A DNA stretch of 20,000 nucleotides, taken from an uncultured virus (IMG/VR IMGVR_UViG_3300048504_000529) (lineage: Duplodnaviria > Heunggongvirae > Uroviricota > Caudoviricetes). The translations under genes and the position numbers were made by a program. Every line of letters begins with the position of its first letter. Position 1 is the stretch's first letter. The stretch lies in the IMG/VR virus record IMGVR_UViG_3300048504_000529. One strand, given 5' to 3'. Below the pieces are notes generated by a model. It worked only from the letters and a program-made list of their open reading frames with translations, did no database searches and was not told the DNA's origin. Shown here piece by piece: positions 4,740 through 16,955 of the stretch.

Positions 4740-5456
4740 TTAAGATATGTTTAGTGCTCCACCACTCCAAGATACGGATACACTACTGTTAATTCCCACG
4801 GGACCACGAGTTCCTTGTGGTCCTCGTAGTCCTTGTGGTCCTTTTTGACCAGGTTGACCAGGTTGACCTGTTTGTCCTTTTTGTCCTTTTTGTTGGGTGT
4901 CACCTTTTTGTCCTTTTTGTCCACCGTCTCCTCCAGGTCCTATTCCTCCTGGTAATCCAGGTTGACCTTTTTGTCCTTTTAATCCAAGTCCACCTTTTTG
5001 TCCTTTTATACTAACTCCGTTGTCTCCTCGTTGACCTTTTTGGCCTGTTCCTGATTGACCTTTTTGTCCTTTTAATCCTTTGTCACCTTGTGTGGCAGAA
5101 CCTCGGTCACCTTGATCACCTCGGTCACCTTGCTCACCAGGAACTCCTGGACCACCGGGTTGACCTTTTTGTCCTTTCTCACCTTCAGATCCTCGGCCAC
5201 CATCAACACCGTCTGATCCAGAGTCTCCTCTATTACCATCACTACCAGGTTGACCAGGTTGACCTTTTTGTCCTTTGGGACCAAGCATCGCACCACCAAG
5301 TGCCGACTTAATATCTGCTAACCTTGTTTTTGAAGTGCGACCGGAAGTTCCTGCATCATCTCCACTTGTTACTGATTTGTCAATTACCACAAATTCATCG
5401 GAATCTGATAAATTATTGATCTCGTTTAGTTCGCTTATTTTTTTAACATCTGCCAT
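4740..5456 (-). CDS. Collagen-like fibre protein (KKISEL N-terminal module + GQK-rich Gly-X-Y repeats)
   Basis: MADVKKISEL...EFVVID; long G-X-Y run; strong AAGGAG SD at 5467-5472. Confidence 0.9.
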   Translation of the reverse strand: MADVKKISELNEINNLSDSDEFVVIDKSVTSGDDAGTSGRTSKTRLADIKSALGGAMLGPKGQKGQPGQPGSDGNRGDSGSDGVDGGRGSEGEKGQKGQPGGPGVPGEQGDRGDQGDRGSATQGDKGLKGQKGQSGTGQKGQRGDNGVSIKGQKGGLGLKGQKGQPGLPGGIGPGGDGGQKGQKGDTQQKGQKGQTGQPGQPGQKGPQGLRGPQGTRGPVGINSSVSVSWSGGALNIS

Positions 5457-5492
5457 TTTTAAATTGCTCCTTAAAAGTTTATCTGAAGTAAG

Positions 5493-5501
5493 AATAAATA
5501 T
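5493..5501 (-). promoter_or_regulatory. ATATTTATT variant of the putative late promoter, upstream of the fibre gene cluster
   Basis: One mismatch to ATATTTATA; lies between the terminator and the SD of 4740..5456. Confidence 0.4.
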
Positions 5502-5541
5502 ATCTAAATAATAATAATATTATGATAATTATTTATTTTAT

Positions 5542-5579
5542 AAAAAAAATGTACCCCAAACCATAAGGAAAGGGGTACA
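5542..5579 (-). terminator. Rho-independent terminator of the small membrane protein gene
   Basis: TGTACCCC (5550-5557) / GGGGTACA (5572-5579) 8-bp stem, 14-nt loop, followed by 8 U on the minus strand. Confidence 0.85.
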
Positions 5580-5587
5580 AAACTAAA

Positions 5588-5624
5588 GCCTGATTGCTCA
5601 GACATATTCTAGGTGTTACCTAGA
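5588..5624 (-). other. Two further 3' UTR hairpins
   Basis: Minus strand UCUAGGU-AAC-ACCUAGA (5608-5624) and GUCUGA-GCAA-UCAGGC (5588-5603, GNRA tetraloop). Confidence 0.65.
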
Positions 5625-5627
5625 GTT

Positions 5628-5861
5628 TTACTCTTTGTCACCTGCGATCAACGCAAGAACAACAAGAAGAGTAATTAAACCAGCAAGGCTTGCACCTTCG
5701 CCAACGAATCCGTCTACGATACCCTGAAGGTTACCGATTACGTCGAATCCAACTTTATCACCGAGGACGATTTGACCTGCTACTCCGAGTCCTACAACTC
5801 CGAGGAATATACCTGTCAAGCCCTTAACGAATCCATTTACTTTTTCGAATATTGCTTTCAT
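5628..5861 (-). CDS. Small Gly-rich membrane protein (77 aa)
   Basis: Hydrophobic segments GLTGIFLGVVGLGVAGQIVLG and LAGLITLLVVLALIAG; AAGGA SD; own terminator. Confidence 0.85.
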   Translation of the reverse strand: MKAIFEKVNGFVKGLTGIFLGVVGLGVAGQIVLGDKVGFDVIGNLQGIVDGFVGEGASLAGLITLLVVLALIAGDKE

Positions 5862-5884
5862 TTTGCTATTTCCTTATGTTCTAT

Positions 5885-5922
5885 GTTTTCTTAATTGAAA
5901 ACGTGCCTTCTTAATGAAGGAC
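5885..5922 (-). promoter_or_regulatory. Structured 5' leader: two tandem hairpins with (A)AUUAA loops
   Basis: Plus strand GTTTTC-ttaatt-GAAAAC (5885-5902) and CCTTC-ttaat-GAAGG (5906-5920); TATAAT on the minus strand at 5933-5938. Confidence 0.6.
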
Positions 5923-5973
5923 TTTTTTTATAATTATAATAATAATTTATTTTTTACTATAACTAAAGAGTTT

Positions 5974-6105
5974 TTATAAAAAGTTATACTTTCTATCCAC
6001 ACCCCCGATATGGTTGATATTACCATACATGACATTATTGTTGTCCGCCTCAAATGTATCGTTAGCATATTGCTGATTACATTTGCTATCTTTTAAAATA
6101 TTCAT
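5974..6105 (-). CDS. Small hypothetical protein (43 aa, MNILKDSKCNQQ...KYNFL)
   Basis: Manual ORF; ATG lies 9 nt after the -10 box of a TTGACA promoter, the same spacing as two other genes. Confidence 0.4.
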   Translation of the reverse strand: MNILKDSKCNQQYANDTFEADNNNVMYGNINHIGGVDRKYNFL

Positions 6106-6114
6106 AAAGTAACA

Positions 6115-6143
6115 AATATATTGCAAGATGCTATATATGTCAA
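6115..6143 (-). promoter_or_regulatory. sigma70-type promoter TTGACA-N17-TATATT
   Basis: -35 at 6138-6143, -10 at 6115-6120. Confidence 0.6.
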
Positions 6144-6158
6144 CTACTATTATGGGTT

Positions 6159-6299
6159 TTATCGTTTGAGGTGTGATCCTCGTTCTTTTGTTACTTTTTT
6201 ATCAAGTGCTTTCATTTTGAAATAATGAATAGGATAAGTTATAGGTAAGCACATATATGCTATTATCCATCCTATTTTATCAATAATATAATCAAACAC
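6159..6299 (-). CDS. Small hypothetical protein with hydrophobic N-half (46 aa, GTG start: MFDYIIDKIGWIIAYMCLPITYPIHYFKMK...)
   Basis: Manual ORF filling the gap; ATATTTATA at 6304-6312, 4 nt upstream of the GTG. Confidence 0.5.
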   Translation of the reverse strand: MFDYIIDKIGWIIAYMCLPITYPIHYFKMKALDKKVTKERGSHLKR

Positions 6300-7517: not shown

Positions 7518-7526
7518 TATTCTTAT

Positions 7527-7555
7527 ACAATAGCAAATTTTGTATAAAAAGTCAA
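7527..7555 (-). promoter_or_regulatory. Putative early promoter TTGACT-N17-TATTGT with extended TGn
   Basis: TTGACTTTTTATA core shared by four sites; ATG 9 nt after the -10 box. Confidence 0.75.
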
Positions 7556-7556
7556 G

Positions 7557-8921
7557 TCAATAAACCTTCGCATATACCGATGCTTCAAACATTTCCGACA
7601 AACCTAACGAATGAGCATATCCGTAAATTCCGGTGACAATCAAATCTTTTTCTTTGTCATTTTTAATAGCAGATGCGATTTGAAGTGCTTGTAATTTGGA
7701 TGTAAGATAATCTAATGCAACTGCATTGCTTTTAAAACCTTTTTCATTCAGTTCTCGTTCTAATGCAGTAACACCAGGTTTCAATGGAAAAACTTGACCA
7801 TAATATTTGTTTATCTCTGACAAAATTTTATCTTTTTTCATTGATTTGATTTTATTATTATCATACAAATCACGATTTGTTAAAGATTTAATAATATGCC
7901 GTGTCGCACCAAATCCACATTTACCATTATTTGCAAATTTTCCTTTTAACTCGATTTGAACACTTTGACCTACTCCAAAGGTTCTTATTTGCATATTTAA
8001 TCCTGCTACCGTTTCAATCACCACATCTTTTGAAGAAAATGGTGTTGCTTGTGGTTTAATACGACAGAACTTAAATGCTTGATTTTGCTTTTTAATATTA
8101 TAAACTGAGTAATTCACAGATGCTCCTGCTTTTTTTAATGAAATTCCAACTATTTCTGCTTTCTTGAATCCTTCTAATAATACCTTATTTAAAGAAACAA
8201 TGTCACTTGTCGCAGGAAGATCAGTTTTATTGCTAATCCAAATATCCGATGGATTCCATTTATCATTACTGATTCTAATTCCCAATTTATTAACTGGTTT
8301 CAAATGCTCTTGAAATTTTTTGTAAATGGAATTCATAAACACCGAGTCACGATGAAAGTGGTGTGATCGTGTGAGTTTGTTTCCTATTTTGGTTTTGATC
8401 TTTTCAGCAGTTAGTATCACGGAATTCAACCACTTTTCATCAGTTTTTAACCAGTTTAAAACTTTTCTTATTTCAGTTTTAGTATTACTTGAACCTAAAT
8501 CTAAAACTTTATCTACCGCATTTATTGTAGTTTCTTCATCTAAATTAAATTCACCGAGATGAACCAACGAAGCAAGTGCTATACAAACTGCACTTTCTGA
8601 TAGTTTTGTAATTTCTGCTCCGGCACCTGAACCCGAACCTTTTGAATAAGGAAGTTTATCAATTTGAGTAAATCTGTATCCAATATTTGTTTTAGAATCA
8701 ACAAAAACATTATTTACATTTTCTTTTAAATAAGAAATTACTTTGCCTGCATTTTTTGATGCTAATATTTTTTTGAGTGATTTAATGGAATTTGAATTAT
8801 AGAATAAAACAACATCCCCTCCATCAATTTTTATTTTATTTTTATTTTCAATATCACATATCAATCTATGTAAATAAGAAAATTCGTTTTTATCTACATC
8901 CGTATAACCAAATGAACCCAT
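7557..8921 (-). CDS. Putative PD-(D/E)xK-like nuclease of a large-phage family (DKWNPxDIW...GISLKK)
   Basis: 454 aa, basic; NDKWNPSDIW and IVGISLKK resemble a restriction-like catalytic D...S-x-K arrangement; start overlaps the upstream stop (TAATG). Confidence 0.55.
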   Translation of the reverse strand: MGSFGYTDVDKNEFSYLHRLICDIENKNKIKIDGGDVVLFYNSNSIKSLKKILASKNAGKVISYLKENVNNVFVDSKTNIGYRFTQIDKLPYSKGSGSGAGAEITKLSESAVCIALASLVHLGEFNLDEETTINAVDKVLDLGSSNTKTEIRKVLNWLKTDEKWLNSVILTAEKIKTKIGNKLTRSHHFHRDSVFMNSIYKKFQEHLKPVNKLGIRISNDKWNPSDIWISNKTDLPATSDIVSLNKVLLEGFKKAEIVGISLKKAGASVNYSVYNIKKQNQAFKFCRIKPQATPFSSKDVVIETVAGLNMQIRTFGVGQSVQIELKGKFANNGKCGFGATRHIIKSLTNRDLYDNNKIKSMKKDKILSEINKYYGQVFPLKPGVTALERELNEKGFKSNAVALDYLTSKLQALQIASAIKNDKEKDLIVTGIYGYAHSLGLSEMFEASVYAKVY

Positions 8922-10112: not shown

Positions 10113-10159
10113 CTCACTTTCAATACAGTGATCTTATCACAATTATTATAAAAAGTCAA
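10113..10159 (-). promoter_or_regulatory. Putative early promoter TTGACT-N17-TAAGAT (TGn) plus conserved leader TGTATTGAAAGTGAG
   Basis: -35 at 10154-10159, -10 at 10131-10136; leader is 14/15 identical to 10365-10379. Confidence 0.8.
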
Positions 10160-10171
10160 CCTAAAAAATCA

Positions 10172-10364: not shown

Positions 10365-10411
10365 CTCACTCTCAATACAAGTATACTACCAAGAATATTA
10401 TAAAAAGTCAA
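10365..10411 (-). promoter_or_regulatory. Putative early promoter TTGACT-N17-TAGTAT (TGn) plus conserved leader TGTATTGAGAGTGAG
   Basis: -35 at 10406-10411, -10 at 10383-10388. Confidence 0.8.
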
Positions 10412-10423
10412 GCATTATTTTTG

Positions 10424-11968
10424 CTAATAAACAAGTTCTTTTAGTGTCTGCAAATCCAACTTACCTGTTGCAAGTACAGGTATTTCATTTACAATTTTAT
10501 GTTTTTTGGGAACAAATAAATTACCAAGTTGCTTGGATAGTTCACTTCTTAAGTTGGTAAAGTTAATATTCTCGGTGGTGATTAAATACAATTCTTCACC
10601 TTTGCGATCATGTGGAATTCCAACAATTACCAACTTTATTTGATCATCGTGTTGCCAATCAAGAATTTTAATTGCTTCTGCTTCAATTGTTTCGTGTGGA
10701 ATCATTTCTCCACCAATTTTGGAAAATCTTGATAAACGACCTTCAATAAAAAGAAATCCATCTGAATCAAGTTTACCTATATCACCTGTAACAAACCAAC
10801 CATTTTCAAATGCTGACTTGGTTTTAGAACTATCCATGATATACTCGGTGAATATATTATCACCTTGAAAGCATAATAATCCAGATTGTGTTCTTGATAA
10901 ATCTACCTTGGTTTCAGGATGAATTGTTTTCACTTTTATAGATGGTAACATCCTACCAACTGATCCGTGTTTGATTCCATTGGTTGTTGTATTCAATGAA
11001 ATCACAGGTGATGTCTCGGTAAGACCATAACCTTCAAGATACTTGCAATCTGCAATAGTTTCCCATTGTTTAATAAAATCTATGTTGCTTTTTTCTGCAC
11101 CTGCAACGACATATTGCAAACTTTTGAATTTGTTGCTCGATCCCTTTTTAAGATATCCACGCAAAAAGGTGGGAGTTCCTAGAAGTATGCTTACTTGCTC
11201 TGCTTGAATGGCTGCAATGGTTTTGTTTATTTCCAAGGGACTTGGTATTGTAACAATCGGAATGCCCTTGATCAACGGTAACCACATTGTAACGGTGAAT
11301 CCAAAACTATGAAACAGTGGTAGATTTGCAAGCAGTTTACTATTTTTTGGAAACTTCTGAATTTCACAAATTCCGTGGACATTACTGAGAATGTTTTCGT
11401 GCGATAATGATACTCCTTTTGGACTACCACTACTTCCACTTGTAAATAAAACTGCAAATTCTTTTGATGTGGCATTCGGTAATATATTCAATATTCGTTT
11501 GGAAATTGTTTTGGGAATTGAATGCAGAATATAGTTCTTGATTAATTTACATTTATCAGATTTGTATGCTTTTAATTGTGTATCACAATCAATTGTATCA
11601 GACTCAGGAAATGGATATTCGGGAAACTTTGTACGCATTGCAGAAACTGTTAATACCAACTTGATTCCTGATTTTGCTAAACAATGTCTTGCAACATCAT
11701 TTGTAACTGAGAAGTTTAAATTTACAGGTATTTTACCTGCAAGCAAAACTGCAACATTGGCAATTACACCAACTGCACAACTTGGAATTACAACACCAAC
11801 TCTATCTGAATTTGTAGATTTAGCAATATCTTTTGACAACGCAGTTGCCATTATCAAAATTTGCTTTTTAGTTATATGAATTGGTTTATCAAGACTATAA
11901 TCTGTAACACATACATTTGAAGAATTTGTGCGAAGTGAGTTGTACAACTCAAACACTAAGTTATTCAT
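10424..11968 (-). CDS. AMP-dependent acyl ligase, similar to the acyl-ACP synthetase domain of Aas, without the acyltransferase domain
   Basis: FTSGSSGSPKGV P-loop, LPLFHSFG, GTPTFLRGY, AGAEK, EGYGLTETSP, WFVTGD, GRLSRFSKIGGEM, TGKLD; GKIPVNLNF is typical of Aas. Confidence 0.9.
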   Translation of the reverse strand: MNNLVFELYNSLRTNSSNVCVTDYSLDKPIHITKKQILIMATALSKDIAKSTNSDRVGVVIPSCAVGVIANVAVLLAGKIPVNLNFSVTNDVARHCLAKSGIKLVLTVSAMRTKFPEYPFPESDTIDCDTQLKAYKSDKCKLIKNYILHSIPKTISKRILNILPNATSKEFAVLFTSGSSGSPKGVSLSHENILSNVHGICEIQKFPKNSKLLANLPLFHSFGFTVTMWLPLIKGIPIVTIPSPLEINKTIAAIQAEQVSILLGTPTFLRGYLKKGSSNKFKSLQYVVAGAEKSNIDFIKQWETIADCKYLEGYGLTETSPVISLNTTTNGIKHGSVGRMLPSIKVKTIHPETKVDLSRTQSGLLCFQGDNIFTEYIMDSSKTKSAFENGWFVTGDIGKLDSDGFLFIEGRLSRFSKIGGEMIPHETIEAEAIKILDWQHDDQIKLVIVGIPHDRKGEELYLITTENINFTNLRSELSKQLGNLFVPKKHKIVNEIPVLATGKLDLQTLKELVY

Positions 11969-12258
11969 GAATTAGATTTTCGTTGAATTCCTTTTTTACC
12001 GATTTCGTATCCTGCATTTTCAATGGCAGTTTTTATTTCGGCATCAGATAATGTTTTGTTTTTTAATAGCATTATATGAGTGTATGATGTTTGAACATCA
12101 AGTGTGACGGTCTTAACCTTCTTGGTCTTTGATAAATGCTTTGTTATACCTATTGCACACGAAGGACACACAAGACCCTTTACGTGTACAGAGATGGTGC
12201 TTCCAAGCAATAGCAAAGGAAACAACATTAATAAGCATACAAAATTAAATAAACGCAT
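11965..12258 (-). CDS. Secreted heavy-metal-associated (HMA) domain protein
   Basis: Signal peptide, then VKGLVCPSC...AIENAGY; overlaps both neighbours. Confidence 0.85.
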   Translation of the reverse strand: MRLFNFVCLLMLFPLLLLGSTISVHVKGLVCPSCAIGITKHLSKTKKVKTVTLDVQTSYTHIMLLKNKTLSDAEIKTAIENAGYEIGKKGIQRKSNS

Positions 12259-13541
12259 TACGCAAGAATCTTGTTTATAATCTTACCATCATGTGCAACC
12301 TTGAAAGGTCTTCCACTTGGTGAGTAATGTATTTCTTCAAGTTTAAGTCCAAGAGCATGAGCAATTGTTGCATTAAGGTCTTCCACCGAAGCACCTTCTT
12401 CTTCAACATAATGTGCTCGTTCGTCACTTACTCCGTAAACGGTTCCACCTTTAATTCCACCTCCAGCAAGAAATGCACTAAAAGCAGTAGGATGATGATC
12501 ACGACCAATACGACCTGCTTTTACTTCAGGACTTCTTCCAAACTCACTTGCAACCACAACCATTGTGTCGTTCAATTTACCGGTTCGTTCAAGGTCTTTT
12601 AATAATGCTGATAATCCACGATCAAGTGTTGCACCACGTGTTTCCATATTTCCGAATACATCATTGTGCATATCCCAACCACCAAGTTGAACTTCAACAA
12701 AACGAACACCGGTATCTACCAATCTTCGTGCAAGCAAACATCCTTGACCAAAATTATCATCTCCGTACATATCACGTGTTTCTTGAGTTTCTTTTGTTAA
12801 ATCAAATGCTTCCAAATCTTTACTACTCATTAATTTTACTGCATCGTTATACAAATCTGTATAAGCACGAACTTGCTTTTGTGAATATTCACCAAGAAAC
12901 ATTTTGTTGAATTCTTGTGCAGTTTTTAAACGACCGTCATACATAGTTTCATCAAGATACTTTGCAGCCTTTGAGTTCTGAATTCCACTTGAAGGATTTC
13001 CCAACGGAAGAGGACCATGTTTGCTTTCAAGAAATCCCGCACCAAGAACATCACTTCCTCCGTTGATGCGAACTTGTGCCGGCAAAGTTTTATTTAATTT
13101 ACCTGACAACCGACTTACCCAACTTCCCAACGTAGGATGTTTGATTGTTCCTCTTCGTTGATATGAAGTATGAAGCAAATAGTTTGCTTGTTGGTGTGCT
13201 CCTTGATTACTTGTCAAACTACGAATCAAAGATGCGTTGTGCATTTGTTTTGCAGTTTCTGGTAACCAATGACCAATTTGAATTCCGTCTGCACTTGTAG
13301 CAATTGCATTGGTTTCACCCATTACATCTGCGTTTTCTGGTTTCGGGTCAAATGTATCAATGTGAGTCATTCCACCTGACATATACAAAAATATGACGTG
13401 TCGTGCAGATGCAGGTTTGCCAGGTATTTCGTATGCAGTTAAATCACCTGCTCCCATGATGGCACTTACTCCAAGACAAGTCTTGGCCATTCCTTTAATA
13501 AATTTTCTTCTTGATAATTCGTCTGTTAATAGATGTTCCAT
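12258..13541 (-). CDS. DUF1501 family protein with Tat signal (PVC-type)
   Basis: SRRKFIK; VIFLYMSGGMTHIDTFDPK; CLLARRLVDTGVRFVEV; GWDMH; SEFGRSP; GRDHHP; AGGGIKGG; AAGGA SD. Confidence 0.93.
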   Translation of the reverse strand: MEHLLTDELSRRKFIKGMAKTCLGVSAIMGAGDLTAYEIPGKPASARHVIFLYMSGGMTHIDTFDPKPENADVMGETNAIATSADGIQIGHWLPETAKQMHNASLIRSLTSNQGAHQQANYLLHTSYQRRGTIKHPTLGSWVSRLSGKLNKTLPAQVRINGGSDVLGAGFLESKHGPLPLGNPSSGIQNSKAAKYLDETMYDGRLKTAQEFNKMFLGEYSQKQVRAYTDLYNDAVKLMSSKDLEAFDLTKETQETRDMYGDDNFGQGCLLARRLVDTGVRFVEVQLGGWDMHNDVFGNMETRGATLDRGLSALLKDLERTGKLNDTMVVVASEFGRSPEVKAGRIGRDHHPTAFSAFLAGGGIKGGTVYGVSDERAHYVEEEGASVEDLNATIAHALGLKLEEIHYSPSGRPFKVAHDGKIINKILA

Positions 13542-13567
13542 TTTGATTTTCCTTTTCTGTTTTAAAT

Positions 13568-15697
13568 TTAACGAATAAAAATAAATTCATGGGAGTTCAT
13601 AAGAATCCATGCAATATGTTTTGCTCCGTCTTTTTGATCAATGTATTTTTTTAAAAGTTTCATTTCTTTTGCGTTTGGTTCACGATTAAGAATGCTCATA
13701 AAAATGTCTTCAATTTTTCCGGTTTCACGTTTTTCCTCTGCCATTTGTTTCATAAAGTCGGCATTTTTATTGTTTACGATTTTTTGCTCAACAAATCCAT
13801 TGAGCATATTAAGAACTTGAGGTGTAGTTGCTTCAAAGTTTGAATTTTCAATGAGTGCTTTATCACTTCCACCAAACTGACGAATGAGGTGACCACCTCT
13901 TGCAGGATAACCTACATAACTACTACGAATCAAATCACGTGCAGGTATCTTTTTTGGTGCGTAAGTTGTTCCATCTGCTTTATTCAACTGAGCAACAACA
14001 TCTGCAAGATTTCGTGATGGTTTATCGGTCTCGGCGAGATATGCCTTTAACTCATCATAAATTTCTTGAGCAGTTTTATCTTTGTATCGTTCATAAACTG
14101 CTTGATACTTTTCATCGTAATTTGAAGGAACTCGTTCAGGTGAATCAATATTGTTGTAAACTAATGTTACCAATGAATCCCAAATTTGTTCTCCTGTCAT
14201 TCTTTGAAGTGGTGGTCCTGCAAAGTAAAATGTTTCGGGACTTTCATAATCATCTTTAACACTATCACGTGTAAATAAATCCATGCTATAAAGCACTCGC
14301 ATAAATTCTTTAACATCATAATCAACTGATGCCATAATTTTTTCAAGATACGCAAGCAATTCAGGATTACTAGATTCGGTCATATCATTCATATCGTCCA
14401 CCGGTTCAATCAACCCAATTCCAAATGCTCGTTTCCATAAACGATTCACTATAACGGTGGTGAATCTTGGATTTGCTTCTGAAGTAATCCATTCAGAAAA
14501 CTGCTTGCGACTTTGTGGAAGTTTTGTTCCTTGTTCAATTTTCAATGGTGGTGCAAAAATTGCTTTTGCATGAAGTGTGTCACCTGGTTTTGCGTCATCT
14601 TCCATAAACGCATCTGTAAGTTTGATTGTTCCTTTGCCTAATTCATCTGCTAATCCATATCCCATAATATCACGAATATAATTACGATATTGTGTAAATG
14701 TTCTTGCATCATCACTTTTATCTTCACGAACAAGTTTATTGAATTCGTTAACAATTTTTTGAAGTTCTTGTGGACCACGAACACGACCAACTCCGTCTGT
14801 GAATGCAGACATTTCATAAAATTGTTTTTGTGTCCATTTATCAAATGGATGATCGTGACACATAGCACATTCTAATCGTGTTCCTAAAAATACTTGTACG
14901 GTGTTTGCAAGATTATCTAATGGCATACCACGATCACGCAAATAAAATCCTATTGCTTCGTTGCCTGAATCATAATACGCACCTTCGGCGGCAATTAGTT
15001 TTTGCACGAATTCATCAAACGGAGTATTTGCACGAATTTCATTGCGAACATATTCACGATAACGAAATCCACTATTAATATTTGTGTTGTTGAGTTTGTC
15101 TTGAATGCGAAGAATATCAGCAAAGTAATTTAACTGATGACTAACATAACCCTCGGTGTCTAACAATTTATTTATGAGTTTAAGTTTATCTCCACGCATT
15201 TCTGTTTTGAATTCATCGATTTCTGCTTTACCAGGAATTCTTCCGATGATTTTTAGATATGCTCTACGCATAAAAGTATAATCATCTGTATCACGGGTTG
15301 GTCTTTGCCGTTCACTACGAAGTTTTTCCAACACCAAATTATCAGCATATCTTGCCAACTTTTTGATTGTTGCTTCATTTAATGGTCTTGGTAATTTAGG
15401 AACATTATAATCTGATGTCATATAATCATCACGAATCATTCGTTGTGATTGCAATGCCAATGCAGTTAATTTGAAACGAAATAATTGCAAATCGTTCTGT
15501 CGTTGAAACAACACACTTTCTCCGTTGTATTCAATAACTTTTCCTTCAAGTTCTTTTCCGTCACCACTAACAATAGTAACAACTTTTCGTTCTAAAGAAA
15601 TCTCTTTTAGATCCTCGGCATTAATCCGTTCCTGTGCGGTTAACCCGACAGAAATGCTCAAAAAGAGCCCCACTAGCACAAAACTTACGTTTTTCAT
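13568..15697 (-). CDS. DUF1549 (PSCyt2) + DUF1553 (PSD1) protein with signal peptide, SHD1-like N-terminal domain and CxxCH motif
   Basis: DDYTFMRRAYLKIIGRIP; FLGTRLECAMCHDHPFDKWTQKQFY; NPRFTTVIVNRLWKRAFGIGLIEPVDD; SNPELL; GEQIWDSL; terminal WILMNSHEFIF. Confidence 0.93.
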   Translation of the reverse strand: MKNVSFVLVGLFLSISVGLTAQERINAEDLKEISLERKVVTIVSGDGKELEGKVIEYNGESVLFQRQNDLQLFRFKLTALALQSQRMIRDDYMTSDYNVPKLPRPLNEATIKKLARYADNLVLEKLRSERQRPTRDTDDYTFMRRAYLKIIGRIPGKAEIDEFKTEMRGDKLKLINKLLDTEGYVSHQLNYFADILRIQDKLNNTNINSGFRYREYVRNEIRANTPFDEFVQKLIAAEGAYYDSGNEAIGFYLRDRGMPLDNLANTVQVFLGTRLECAMCHDHPFDKWTQKQFYEMSAFTDGVGRVRGPQELQKIVNEFNKLVREDKSDDARTFTQYRNYIRDIMGYGLADELGKGTIKLTDAFMEDDAKPGDTLHAKAIFAPPLKIEQGTKLPQSRKQFSEWITSEANPRFTTVIVNRLWKRAFGIGLIEPVDDMNDMTESSNPELLAYLEKIMASVDYDVKEFMRVLYSMDLFTRDSVKDDYESPETFYFAGPPLQRMTGEQIWDSLVTLVYNNIDSPERVPSNYDEKYQAVYERYKDKTAQEIYDELKAYLAETDKPSRNLADVVAQLNKADGTTYAPKKIPARDLIRSSYVGYPARGGHLIRQFGGSDKALIENSNFEATTPQVLNMLNGFVEQKIVNNKNADFMKQMAEEKRETGKIEDIFMSILNREPNAKEMKLLKKYIDQKDGAKHIAWILMNSHEFIFIR

Positions 15698-16840: not shown

Positions 16841-16849
16841 TATTATATA

Positions 16850-16878
16850 ACCTTATTATTTTTTTTATAAAAAGTCAA
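16850..16878 (-). promoter_or_regulatory. Putative early promoter TTGACT-N17-TAAGGT
   Basis: TTGACTTTTTATA core; ATG 9 nt after the -10 box. Confidence 0.7.
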
Positions 16879-16955
16879 GCACTTTTTTTAGCAACTTCGT
16901 ATTCCAAATTTCGGAAGTTTTGATGATGAATGATATCTTCTAGTAGTAATTTACC

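Follow-up and report, generated by a model that had tools for sequence, protein, structure and literature searches.

A terminator loop complementary to its own Shine-Dalgarno region in a small membrane-protein mRNA of an uncultured marine tailed phage

In the RNA phage MS2, long-distance pairing closes the start of the replicase gene; the partner lies upstream in the coat gene and is opened by translation. The phage mRNA described here resembles MS2 in a long-range pairing that would mask a ribosome binding site (RBS), whereas in MS2 this occurs within the genomic RNA of an RNA phage. Natural interactions in cis between the 3' end and the RBS of bacterial or phage mRNAs are known from very few cases, icaR and hbs. 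In the icaR mRNA of Staphylococcus aureus, the motif UCCCCUG in the 3'UTR pairs with the same mRNA's Shine-Dalgarno (SD) region, which blocks initiation and creates an RNase III substrate, and the pairing may act in cis or between molecules (PMC3868564). The hbs mRNA of Bacillus subtilis has a 14-bp interaction between its 5' and 3' UTRs that, unlike the arrangement reported here, has a protective effect and modulates how RNase Y cleaves the leader; masking of the SD is not described for it (PMC5737220). In B. subtilis reporters, pyrimidine-rich anti-RBS 8-mers located hundreds of nt downstream, 3'UTR included, pair with the RBS, promote decay and inhibit initiation in a context-dependent manner (Gill et al., 2025 preprint; PMC12697547). 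These 8-mers are synthetic and reported to be depleted from natural genes, and the study suggests that 3' anti-RBS sequences are generally selected against (PMC12697547). Type I toxins are defined in T1TAdb as peptides of 20-60 aa (PMC8594479), and the model for aapA1 requires 3' processing for activation (PMC5416894). No description of an anti-SD element in the terminator loop of a phage mRNA was found in the literature searched, a coverage that leaves out most subscription journals.

We analyzed a stretch of 20,000 nt from an uncultured tailed phage (IMG/VR record IMGVR_UViG_3300048504_000529), hereafter the window, in which an initial annotation had pointed to a terminator loop complementary to the SD region of its own mRNA. 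The unit spans 381 nt on the minus strand (5922-5542); it is a monocistronic mRNA, compact and structured, that encodes a small membrane protein of 77 aa. It is preceded by the -10-like box TATAATTATAAA (5938-5927, on the minus strand like all features of the unit given below), which stands without a -35 hexamer and is a candidate phage late-type promoter; the TATAA-AAGTC part of this box is nearly invariant in 30 relatives. Folding places two hairpins at the 5' end, hairpin 1 (GUCCUUC...GAAGGCAC, 5922-5903) and hairpin 2 (GUUUUC AAUUAA GAAAAC, 5902-5885). The 10-mer CAUAAGGAAA (5878-5869) follows in a single-stranded stretch of the leader and covers the AAGGA core of the SD, 9 nt before the AUG at 5861-5859. 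The coding sequence of 77 codons (5861-5628) encodes three predicted helices, two of them hydrophobic. Its 3'UTR of 77 nt contains two small hairpins, 3' hairpin 1 (CUAGGU AAC ACCUAG, 5623-5609) and 3' hairpin 2 with a GNAA tetraloop (GCAA in the window, 5603-5588), and ends with an intrinsic terminator hairpin (5579-5550). The latter has an 8-bp stem with four G-C pairs at its top (arms UGUACCCC, 5579-5572, and GGGGUACA, 5557-5550), a 14-nt loop (5571-5558) and a U-tract of eight residues (5549-5542), and no other convincing terminator was seen on the window's coding strand. The first ten bases of the loop form the putative anti-SD element, UUUCCUUAUG (5571-5562). They match exactly, UUUCCUUAUG being the reverse complement of CAUAAGGAAA, and both the complementarity and the positions given for it initially proved correct.

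The minus-strand fold also recovered every structure claimed at the outset, namely two 5' and three 3' hairpins, one with a GCAA loop, and the 391-nt stretch folds far better than shuffled sequences (z = -5.4; 0 of 100 as good). Covariance models from Rfam gave no match within 5300-6200 at E values up to 1. An ORF of 33 codons that runs through the terminator (5605-5504) was judged non-coding because relatives carry indels of 1, 5 and 8 nt.

The duplex between loop and SD comprises 10 perfect base pairs with a predicted energy of -12.6 kcal/mol. A further extension by about three pairs across a one-base bulge had been suggested. Such pairs exist weakly (A-U, G.U, A-U), although they follow a 1x1 A/G mismatch and no bulge, and they are not conserved; extending the duplex through the last loop bases gave inconsistent results among relatives. 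Like icaR, the unit thus has, within its 3'UTR, a motif complementary to the SD of its own mRNA (PMC3868564). It differs in that the icaR motif lies 260 nt past the stop codon in a long 3'UTR and that of the phage unit in a terminator loop; in that 7 nt pair in icaR and 10 nt would pair in the phage unit; and in that a bacterial regulator gene is controlled in one case and a phage membrane-protein cassette carries the element in the other (PMC3868564). In contrast to the synthetic 8-mers of the B. subtilis reporters, the phage element is natural, is kept by selection and is displayed in a terminator loop (PMC12697547).

We then estimated how often such a match arises by chance. When the loop was shuffled by mononucleotides, 5 of 500 shuffles gave a 10-nt match to the 63-nt leader (∼1%). 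A looser test accepted any perfect complement of at least 10 nt between a 63-nt 5' region and a 100-nt 3' region 231 nt apart, and was passed by 6 of 392 sliding controls in the window and by 35 of 2000 cross-pairs (1.5-1.75%), and by none of 86 distinct distant homolog loci. The exact 10-mer occurs three times in the window, the number that shuffles give as well; two of these copies are the partners, and the third sits inside a gene on the other strand. The loop motif is present once per locus. Hence, the match taken alone is uncommon but not overwhelming, and its extra weight comes from conservation.

The best predicted target of the loop among the 19 ORF starts in the window is the start of its own gene. 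The next gene follows at -9.5 kcal/mol, and the remaining starts at -7.9 kcal/mol or weaker. An SD-like motif was recognized by eye at only about 5 of the 19 starts, so that SD-dependent initiation is an assumption.

Parts of the stretch are present in 19 of 22 listed sequencing runs, 12 of which are recorded as RNA and come from 10 studies. Mapping of four marine RNA runs from four studies yielded seven matching contigs of 196-313 nt. All longer contig matches lie inside 5538-5915, and one contig matches only briefly at 5921-5955; the regions 5300-5537 and 5956-6150 have no contig cover in the four runs, which says nothing about transcript ends, as contigs carry no ends, strand or level, and DNA carry-over is possible. 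These data bear on the possibility that the structured 3'UTR and terminator are, or yield, a small RNA acting in trans, with a CU-rich loop that covers SDs of other phage or host genes; the match to the own SD would then merely reflect a general anti-SD mimic. Three conserved hairpins in the 3'UTR are consistent with such an RNA, and so is the pairing of the loop with the AAGGAG site of the next gene (4740-5456). However, the start of its own gene is by a clear margin the best predicted target of the loop in the window, the one other exact copy of the 10-mer is inside the other-strand gene, and a processed 3' species is not demonstrated by the RNA contigs, which cannot show ends. We therefore regard an action in trans as distinctly unlikely.

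In the predicted ensemble of the 381-nt RNA, seven of the ten loop bases are unpaired with probabilities of 0.97-0.98, while the two Cs and the final G of the 10-mer have predicted partners inside the loop. For the SD bases, the probabilities of being unpaired are 0.28-0.96. A contact between loop and SD would be a pseudoknot and is therefore missing from the minimum free energy (MFE) structure, since nearest-neighbour folding cannot score pseudoknots. A nested fold-back, which opens the terminator stem and joins the initiation region to the 3'UTR through a helix of -26.2 kcal/mol, was predicted at -114.6 kcal/mol compared with -116.3 kcal/mol for the MFE structure, a difference of 1.7 kcal/mol. 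This extended fold-back was dropped as the main model because its GCUUU/AAAGC segment varies on one side only in relatives and because the terminator stem must open.

The fold-back is reminiscent of the toxin mRNAs of type I toxin-antitoxin modules such as hok/Sok and aapA/IsoA, in which a 5'-3' fold-back silences the message, 3' trimming activates it and an antisense RNA, 60-200 nt long, lies over the leader, and to which the unit had initially been compared. In silico, the unit has the traits of such an mRNA (150-400 nt with 5'-3' sequestration of the SD), given its length of 381 nt, the complement and a fold-back alternative nearly isoenergetic with the MFE structure; its product is hydrophobic and its SD putatively masked. 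There is also a weak candidate promoter for an antisense RNA on the plus strand, with 8 of 12 matches (TTAACG, 5824-5829; a spacer of 18 nt; AATATT, 5848-5853). TTGACG replaces TTAACG in 12 of 37 relatives, and the candidate lies under a block of invariant synonymous sites described below. Yet a T-run that could end the antisense RNA is not conserved, and neither is GCUUU/AAAGC of the fold-back. Moreover, the toxins of hok and aapA1 type, with 20-60 aa, a cognate antisense RNA and activation by 3' processing, stand in contrast to a protein of 77 aa that belongs to a large, well-conserved phage family with 426 homologs (PMC8594479, PMC5416894), and the usual place of the gene is in an operon behind a porin-like gene, mostly with a plain terminator. 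The comparison with hok and aapA was consequently given up, and we consider a type I-like module the least probable of the explanations weighed here.

To follow the element across relatives, we gathered 158 loci, the metagenome relatives among these being the best 80 of 316. The close clade (L007-L051) shares 78-100% identity, and its main-clade alignment, A3, contains 30 distinct sequences. Among the 39 close-clade units with enough flanking sequence, 29 have the exact loop 10-mer and 3 have a single loop change (L010, C>U; L019, A>G; L028, U>C), two of which are wobble-compatible, a proportion that is not significant (estimated chance about 0.2). Five units (L033, L034, L036, L037 and L039) keep the stem with other loops of 16-18 nt, and two (L027 and L031) have a different, ordinary terminator. 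The SD 10-mer has no variable column where it is present, and its first C is missing in 5 of the 30 sequences. Seven of the ten loop/SD pairs never vary in the 30 sequences, two vary on one side and stay G.U or U.G, and one has a single mismatched cell, so that 99.7% of all cells are paired.

Nucleotide diversity in the 30 distinct sequences was 0.020 for the loop 10-mer and 0 for the SD 10-mer. For comparison, it was 0.162 for the last four loop bases, 0.175 for the unpaired 3'UTR, 0.331 for the unpaired leader and 0.321 for third positions of codons 13-77. Within the loop, conservation thus stops where complementarity stops. These values indicate purifying selection on both partners, which for the loop 10-mer is strong across the close clade, and the simplest reason that fits the exact extent of the selected loop part would be pairing with the SD of the same or a sister message.

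A chance match could in principle be kept by hitch-hiking among closely related sampled sequences. Complements of at least 10 nt do occur in 1.5-1.75% of gene-sized pairs, which with 19 genes per window leads to occasional matches, and covariation is absent. Against this, divergence at adjacent unpaired bases and at synonymous sites is 8- to 16-fold higher than in the loop 10-mer of the same sequences. The pair of 10-mers also survives on the L041-L050 branch (0.29 changes per site), on which 3' hairpin 1 was lost and the loop of 3' hairpin 2 enlarged or changed; in L041, both leader hairpins are replaced as well. Chance retention is accordingly very unlikely in our estimation.

Compensatory changes between loop and SD would have strengthened the case for pairing. 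No pair was altered on both sides in the 30 sequences (0 of 10 pairs), with both partners nearly invariant. Covariation was found elsewhere in the unit. Both-sided changes occurred in five of seven pairs of 5' hairpin 1 and in six of six pairs of 5' hairpin 2, and one pair of 3' hairpin 2 switches from U-A to C-G in ten sequences. 3' hairpin 1 is absent in 5 of 30 relatives. The terminator stem itself showed no covariation, as its eight pairs are invariant in all 30 sequences, which means that the whole terminator hairpin may be conserved for another reason. The stem together with the first ten loop bases could be a sequence-specific site for something else, such as an RNA-binding protein of phage or host, or could be a determinant of stability or termination, and the match to the SD would be incidental. 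In addition to the invariant stem, this alternative is favoured by the retention of the GUACCCC/GGGGUAC stem in L033-L039, where the loop differs, and by the fact that loop and SD are not linked by any compensatory change. On the other hand, an accidental perfect 10-nt match that falls on the SD is a ∼1% event, the conserved part of the loop ends together with the complementarity (0.020 vs 0.162), and no Rfam family matches the hairpin. We consider a site of this kind unlikely.

Two further patterns of conservation were observed in the main clade. The loop of 3' hairpin 2 stays GNAA (GCAA, GAAA or GUAA) in 27 of 30 sequences, which fits a selected GNRA tetraloop, and is larger in L041, L045 and L046. 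Synonymous sites are nearly invariant in codons 1-12, with a diversity of 0.027 compared with 0.321 in codons 13-77 of the 30 relatives; most of these sites (window positions 5824-5861, the first 12-13 codons) are unchanged also in both sister groups. The invariant block stops where the weak antisense promoter candidate on the plus strand would end. The block could reflect either an RNA-level constraint on the initiation region or a conserved feature of the other strand.

The sister lineages differ in their 5'-3' relations. In L027 and L031, both the SD region (AAUAGGAAAG) and the terminator differ from those of the main clade, and there is no complementarity. In L033-L039, the leader differs and loops of 16-18 nt are carried on the same GUACCCC/GGGGUAC stem; three of the five have a perfect complement of 7-9 nt to their own leader or start region. 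The match in L034 is 9 nt long (GUUAACAAG) and located 27 to 19 nt before the AUG, the one in L037 is 8 nt long (ACUAACAA) and extends to the A of the AUG, and L039 has a match of 7 nt (GAACUAA). Perfect matches in L033 and L036 are only 4 nt long, and L033 reaches 7 nt over AAUAGAA when G.U pairs are allowed. The number of shuffles that equalled or surpassed the real loop in duplex energy, out of 500 each, was 35 for L033, 4 for L034, 488 for L036, 90 for L037 and 66 for L039. The pairing site is therefore shifted in this group, and two of the five sequences have no complement beyond chance. This weak pattern, from five related sequences, is suggestive of a 5'-3' contact that is maintained but drifting. 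The initial annotation had named a lack of complementarity in homologous loci as evidence against its proposal; such a lack was found beyond the close clade and, within it, in 2 of 37 sequences.

The 77-aa protein has 426 relatives at E values up to 0.01 (431 candidates), with lengths of 63-104 aa among the 120 matches listed, and none of the 426 carries a Pfam domain or an informative name. Searches of Pfam, PHROG, NCBIfam and PDB with the protein itself gave no match, and its ESM Atlas neighbours are clusters of mostly viral (Uroviricota) proteins. AlphaFold2, run with 45 sequences, predicted three helices (residues 2-37, 41-53 and 59-74) with a mean pLDDT of 80.8. Nothing was found with a sequence profile against PDB or with Foldseek against PDB and BFVD. 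A tblastn search of the protein, a distant homolog and the porin-like partner against 50,697 phage records had no match, nor did a single-protein scan of IMG/VR. We also considered a phage holin and rejected it: PHROG and Pfam gave no match, there is no lysin among the 19 ORFs of the window, and distant homologs adjoin a porin-like gene among nucleotide-metabolism genes.

These distant homologs (∼50% identity) are encoded on IMG/VR contigs of up to 222 kb. Five such records were searched for a T4-type gp23 capsid protein, which two of them encode. The small gene begins 2-28 nt (median 16.5) after an ORF of ∼220 aa with a signal peptide and a C-terminal ...KF in 70 of 82 distinct distant loci. 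Five of these upstream ORFs were compared with family databases, with sub-threshold hits only: three in Pfam (Gcw_chp, Porin_4, Phage_OMP) and two in NCBIfam (TorF family porin; PEP-CTERM-associated outer membrane protein). The combination of a porin-like protein of the outer membrane with a small protein of the inner membrane thus looks like a conserved phage gene pair (L052-L158 and L001-L006), and in the two records examined its surroundings include genes for a dUTPase and a dCMP deaminase, or for a methyltransferase, an HNH endonuclease and a kinase. The loci L001-L006 are on contigs of metagenome-assembled genomes (MAGs) labelled Flavobacteriaceae (two), Proteobacteria, Woesebacteria, Opitutia and uncultured bacterium, a spread that fits phage contigs binned into unrelated MAGs better than true hosts.

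Terminators of the distant homologs are ordinary, with loops of 3-5 nt in 74 of 79, and the 14-nt loop is atypical among them. No porin-like gene was present upstream in the close clade (0 of 32 distinct loci), and an HMM of the porin-like protein had no match in the six-frame translated window. The small gene of the close clade is therefore a relocated, autonomous cassette, and the comparison of loci indicates that the unusual RNA features belong to this cassette and not to the gene family. An IMG/VR scan for the terminator stem with a loop of 12-20 nt returned 70 loci, 10 of them with a U-tract; neither the loop motif nor the gene was present in any.

All large ORFs of the window are on the minus strand, and searches with the 19 ORFs matched three collagen-repeat proteins to tail-fibre families. 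An unusual phage cargo is encoded at 10424-15697 on the minus strand, comprising an AMP-binding enzyme, an HMA-domain protein, a DUF1501 protein (E 1.9e-112) and a PSCyt2/PSD1 protein; the pair DUF1501 and PSCyt2/PSD1 is typical of Planctomycetota and Verrucomicrobiota. Four upstream regions share a promoter-like motif, TTGACT-N17-TAnnAT, which, unlike the box of the unit, has a -35 element and therefore points to a host polymerase of the sigma-70 kind. Repeats of CTTGACTTTTTATA...TAnnAT were located on the minus strand at ∼7520-7560, 10131-10160, 10383-10411 and 16842-16880, and two of the copies precede a shared GA-rich leader, TGTATTGAAAGTGAGAG. These copies are probably early promoters with a common leader. 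Directly after the U-tract of the terminator lies TTTTATAA (5532-5549), which is kept in nearly all 30 relatives (A3 columns ∼420-431). It resembles the box preceding the small gene and may act as promoter for the collagen-like tail-fibre gene downstream.

Overall, this uncultured marine tailed phage carries the unit as an autonomous cassette, in which a promoter and a structured leader precede the membrane-protein gene and a terminator follows it. That its terminator loop is an icaR-like anti-SD element acting in cis within this relocated cassette is a reading to which we give an even chance. The RBS would be free while the RNA is being made. The terminator hairpin would form ∼310 nt after the SD, and its exposed loop could then pair with CAUAAGGAAA, either within one molecule as a loop-to-leader pseudoknot or between sister molecules. 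With the terminator loop as partner, masking would start only once transcription is complete. The duplex would compete with the 30S subunit, and the outcome could be less translation per finished message, or a stability tied to translation as for icaR and hbs. Loop pairing probably lowers translation or couples translation to decay after transcription completes; pairing in vivo and the direction of its effect are inferred, and protection as in hbs would be another outcome. A self-silencing mRNA, as originally proposed, is thus plausible in view of the selection on the loop, the own start as its best target and the precedents of icaR and the 8-mers in a 3'UTR, while the absence of covariation speaks against it.

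A bolder version of the icaR-like reading would see the terminator loop as a timer in marine T4-like and related large phages, gained by the gene on leaving the porin operon. We put this forward tentatively and think it rather doubtful. If true, translation would take place only during transcription, each transcript would give a fixed small burst of a membrane-active protein, and the locus would exemplify a broader habit of these phages that is so far undescribed. The unit, 381 nt long, monocistronic, present in marine RNA contigs and with the anti-SD in the most exposed part of its terminator, is an unusually clean natural test object for self-limiting messages. The case also documents a change of regulatory dress, from the second place in an operon to a stand-alone cassette.
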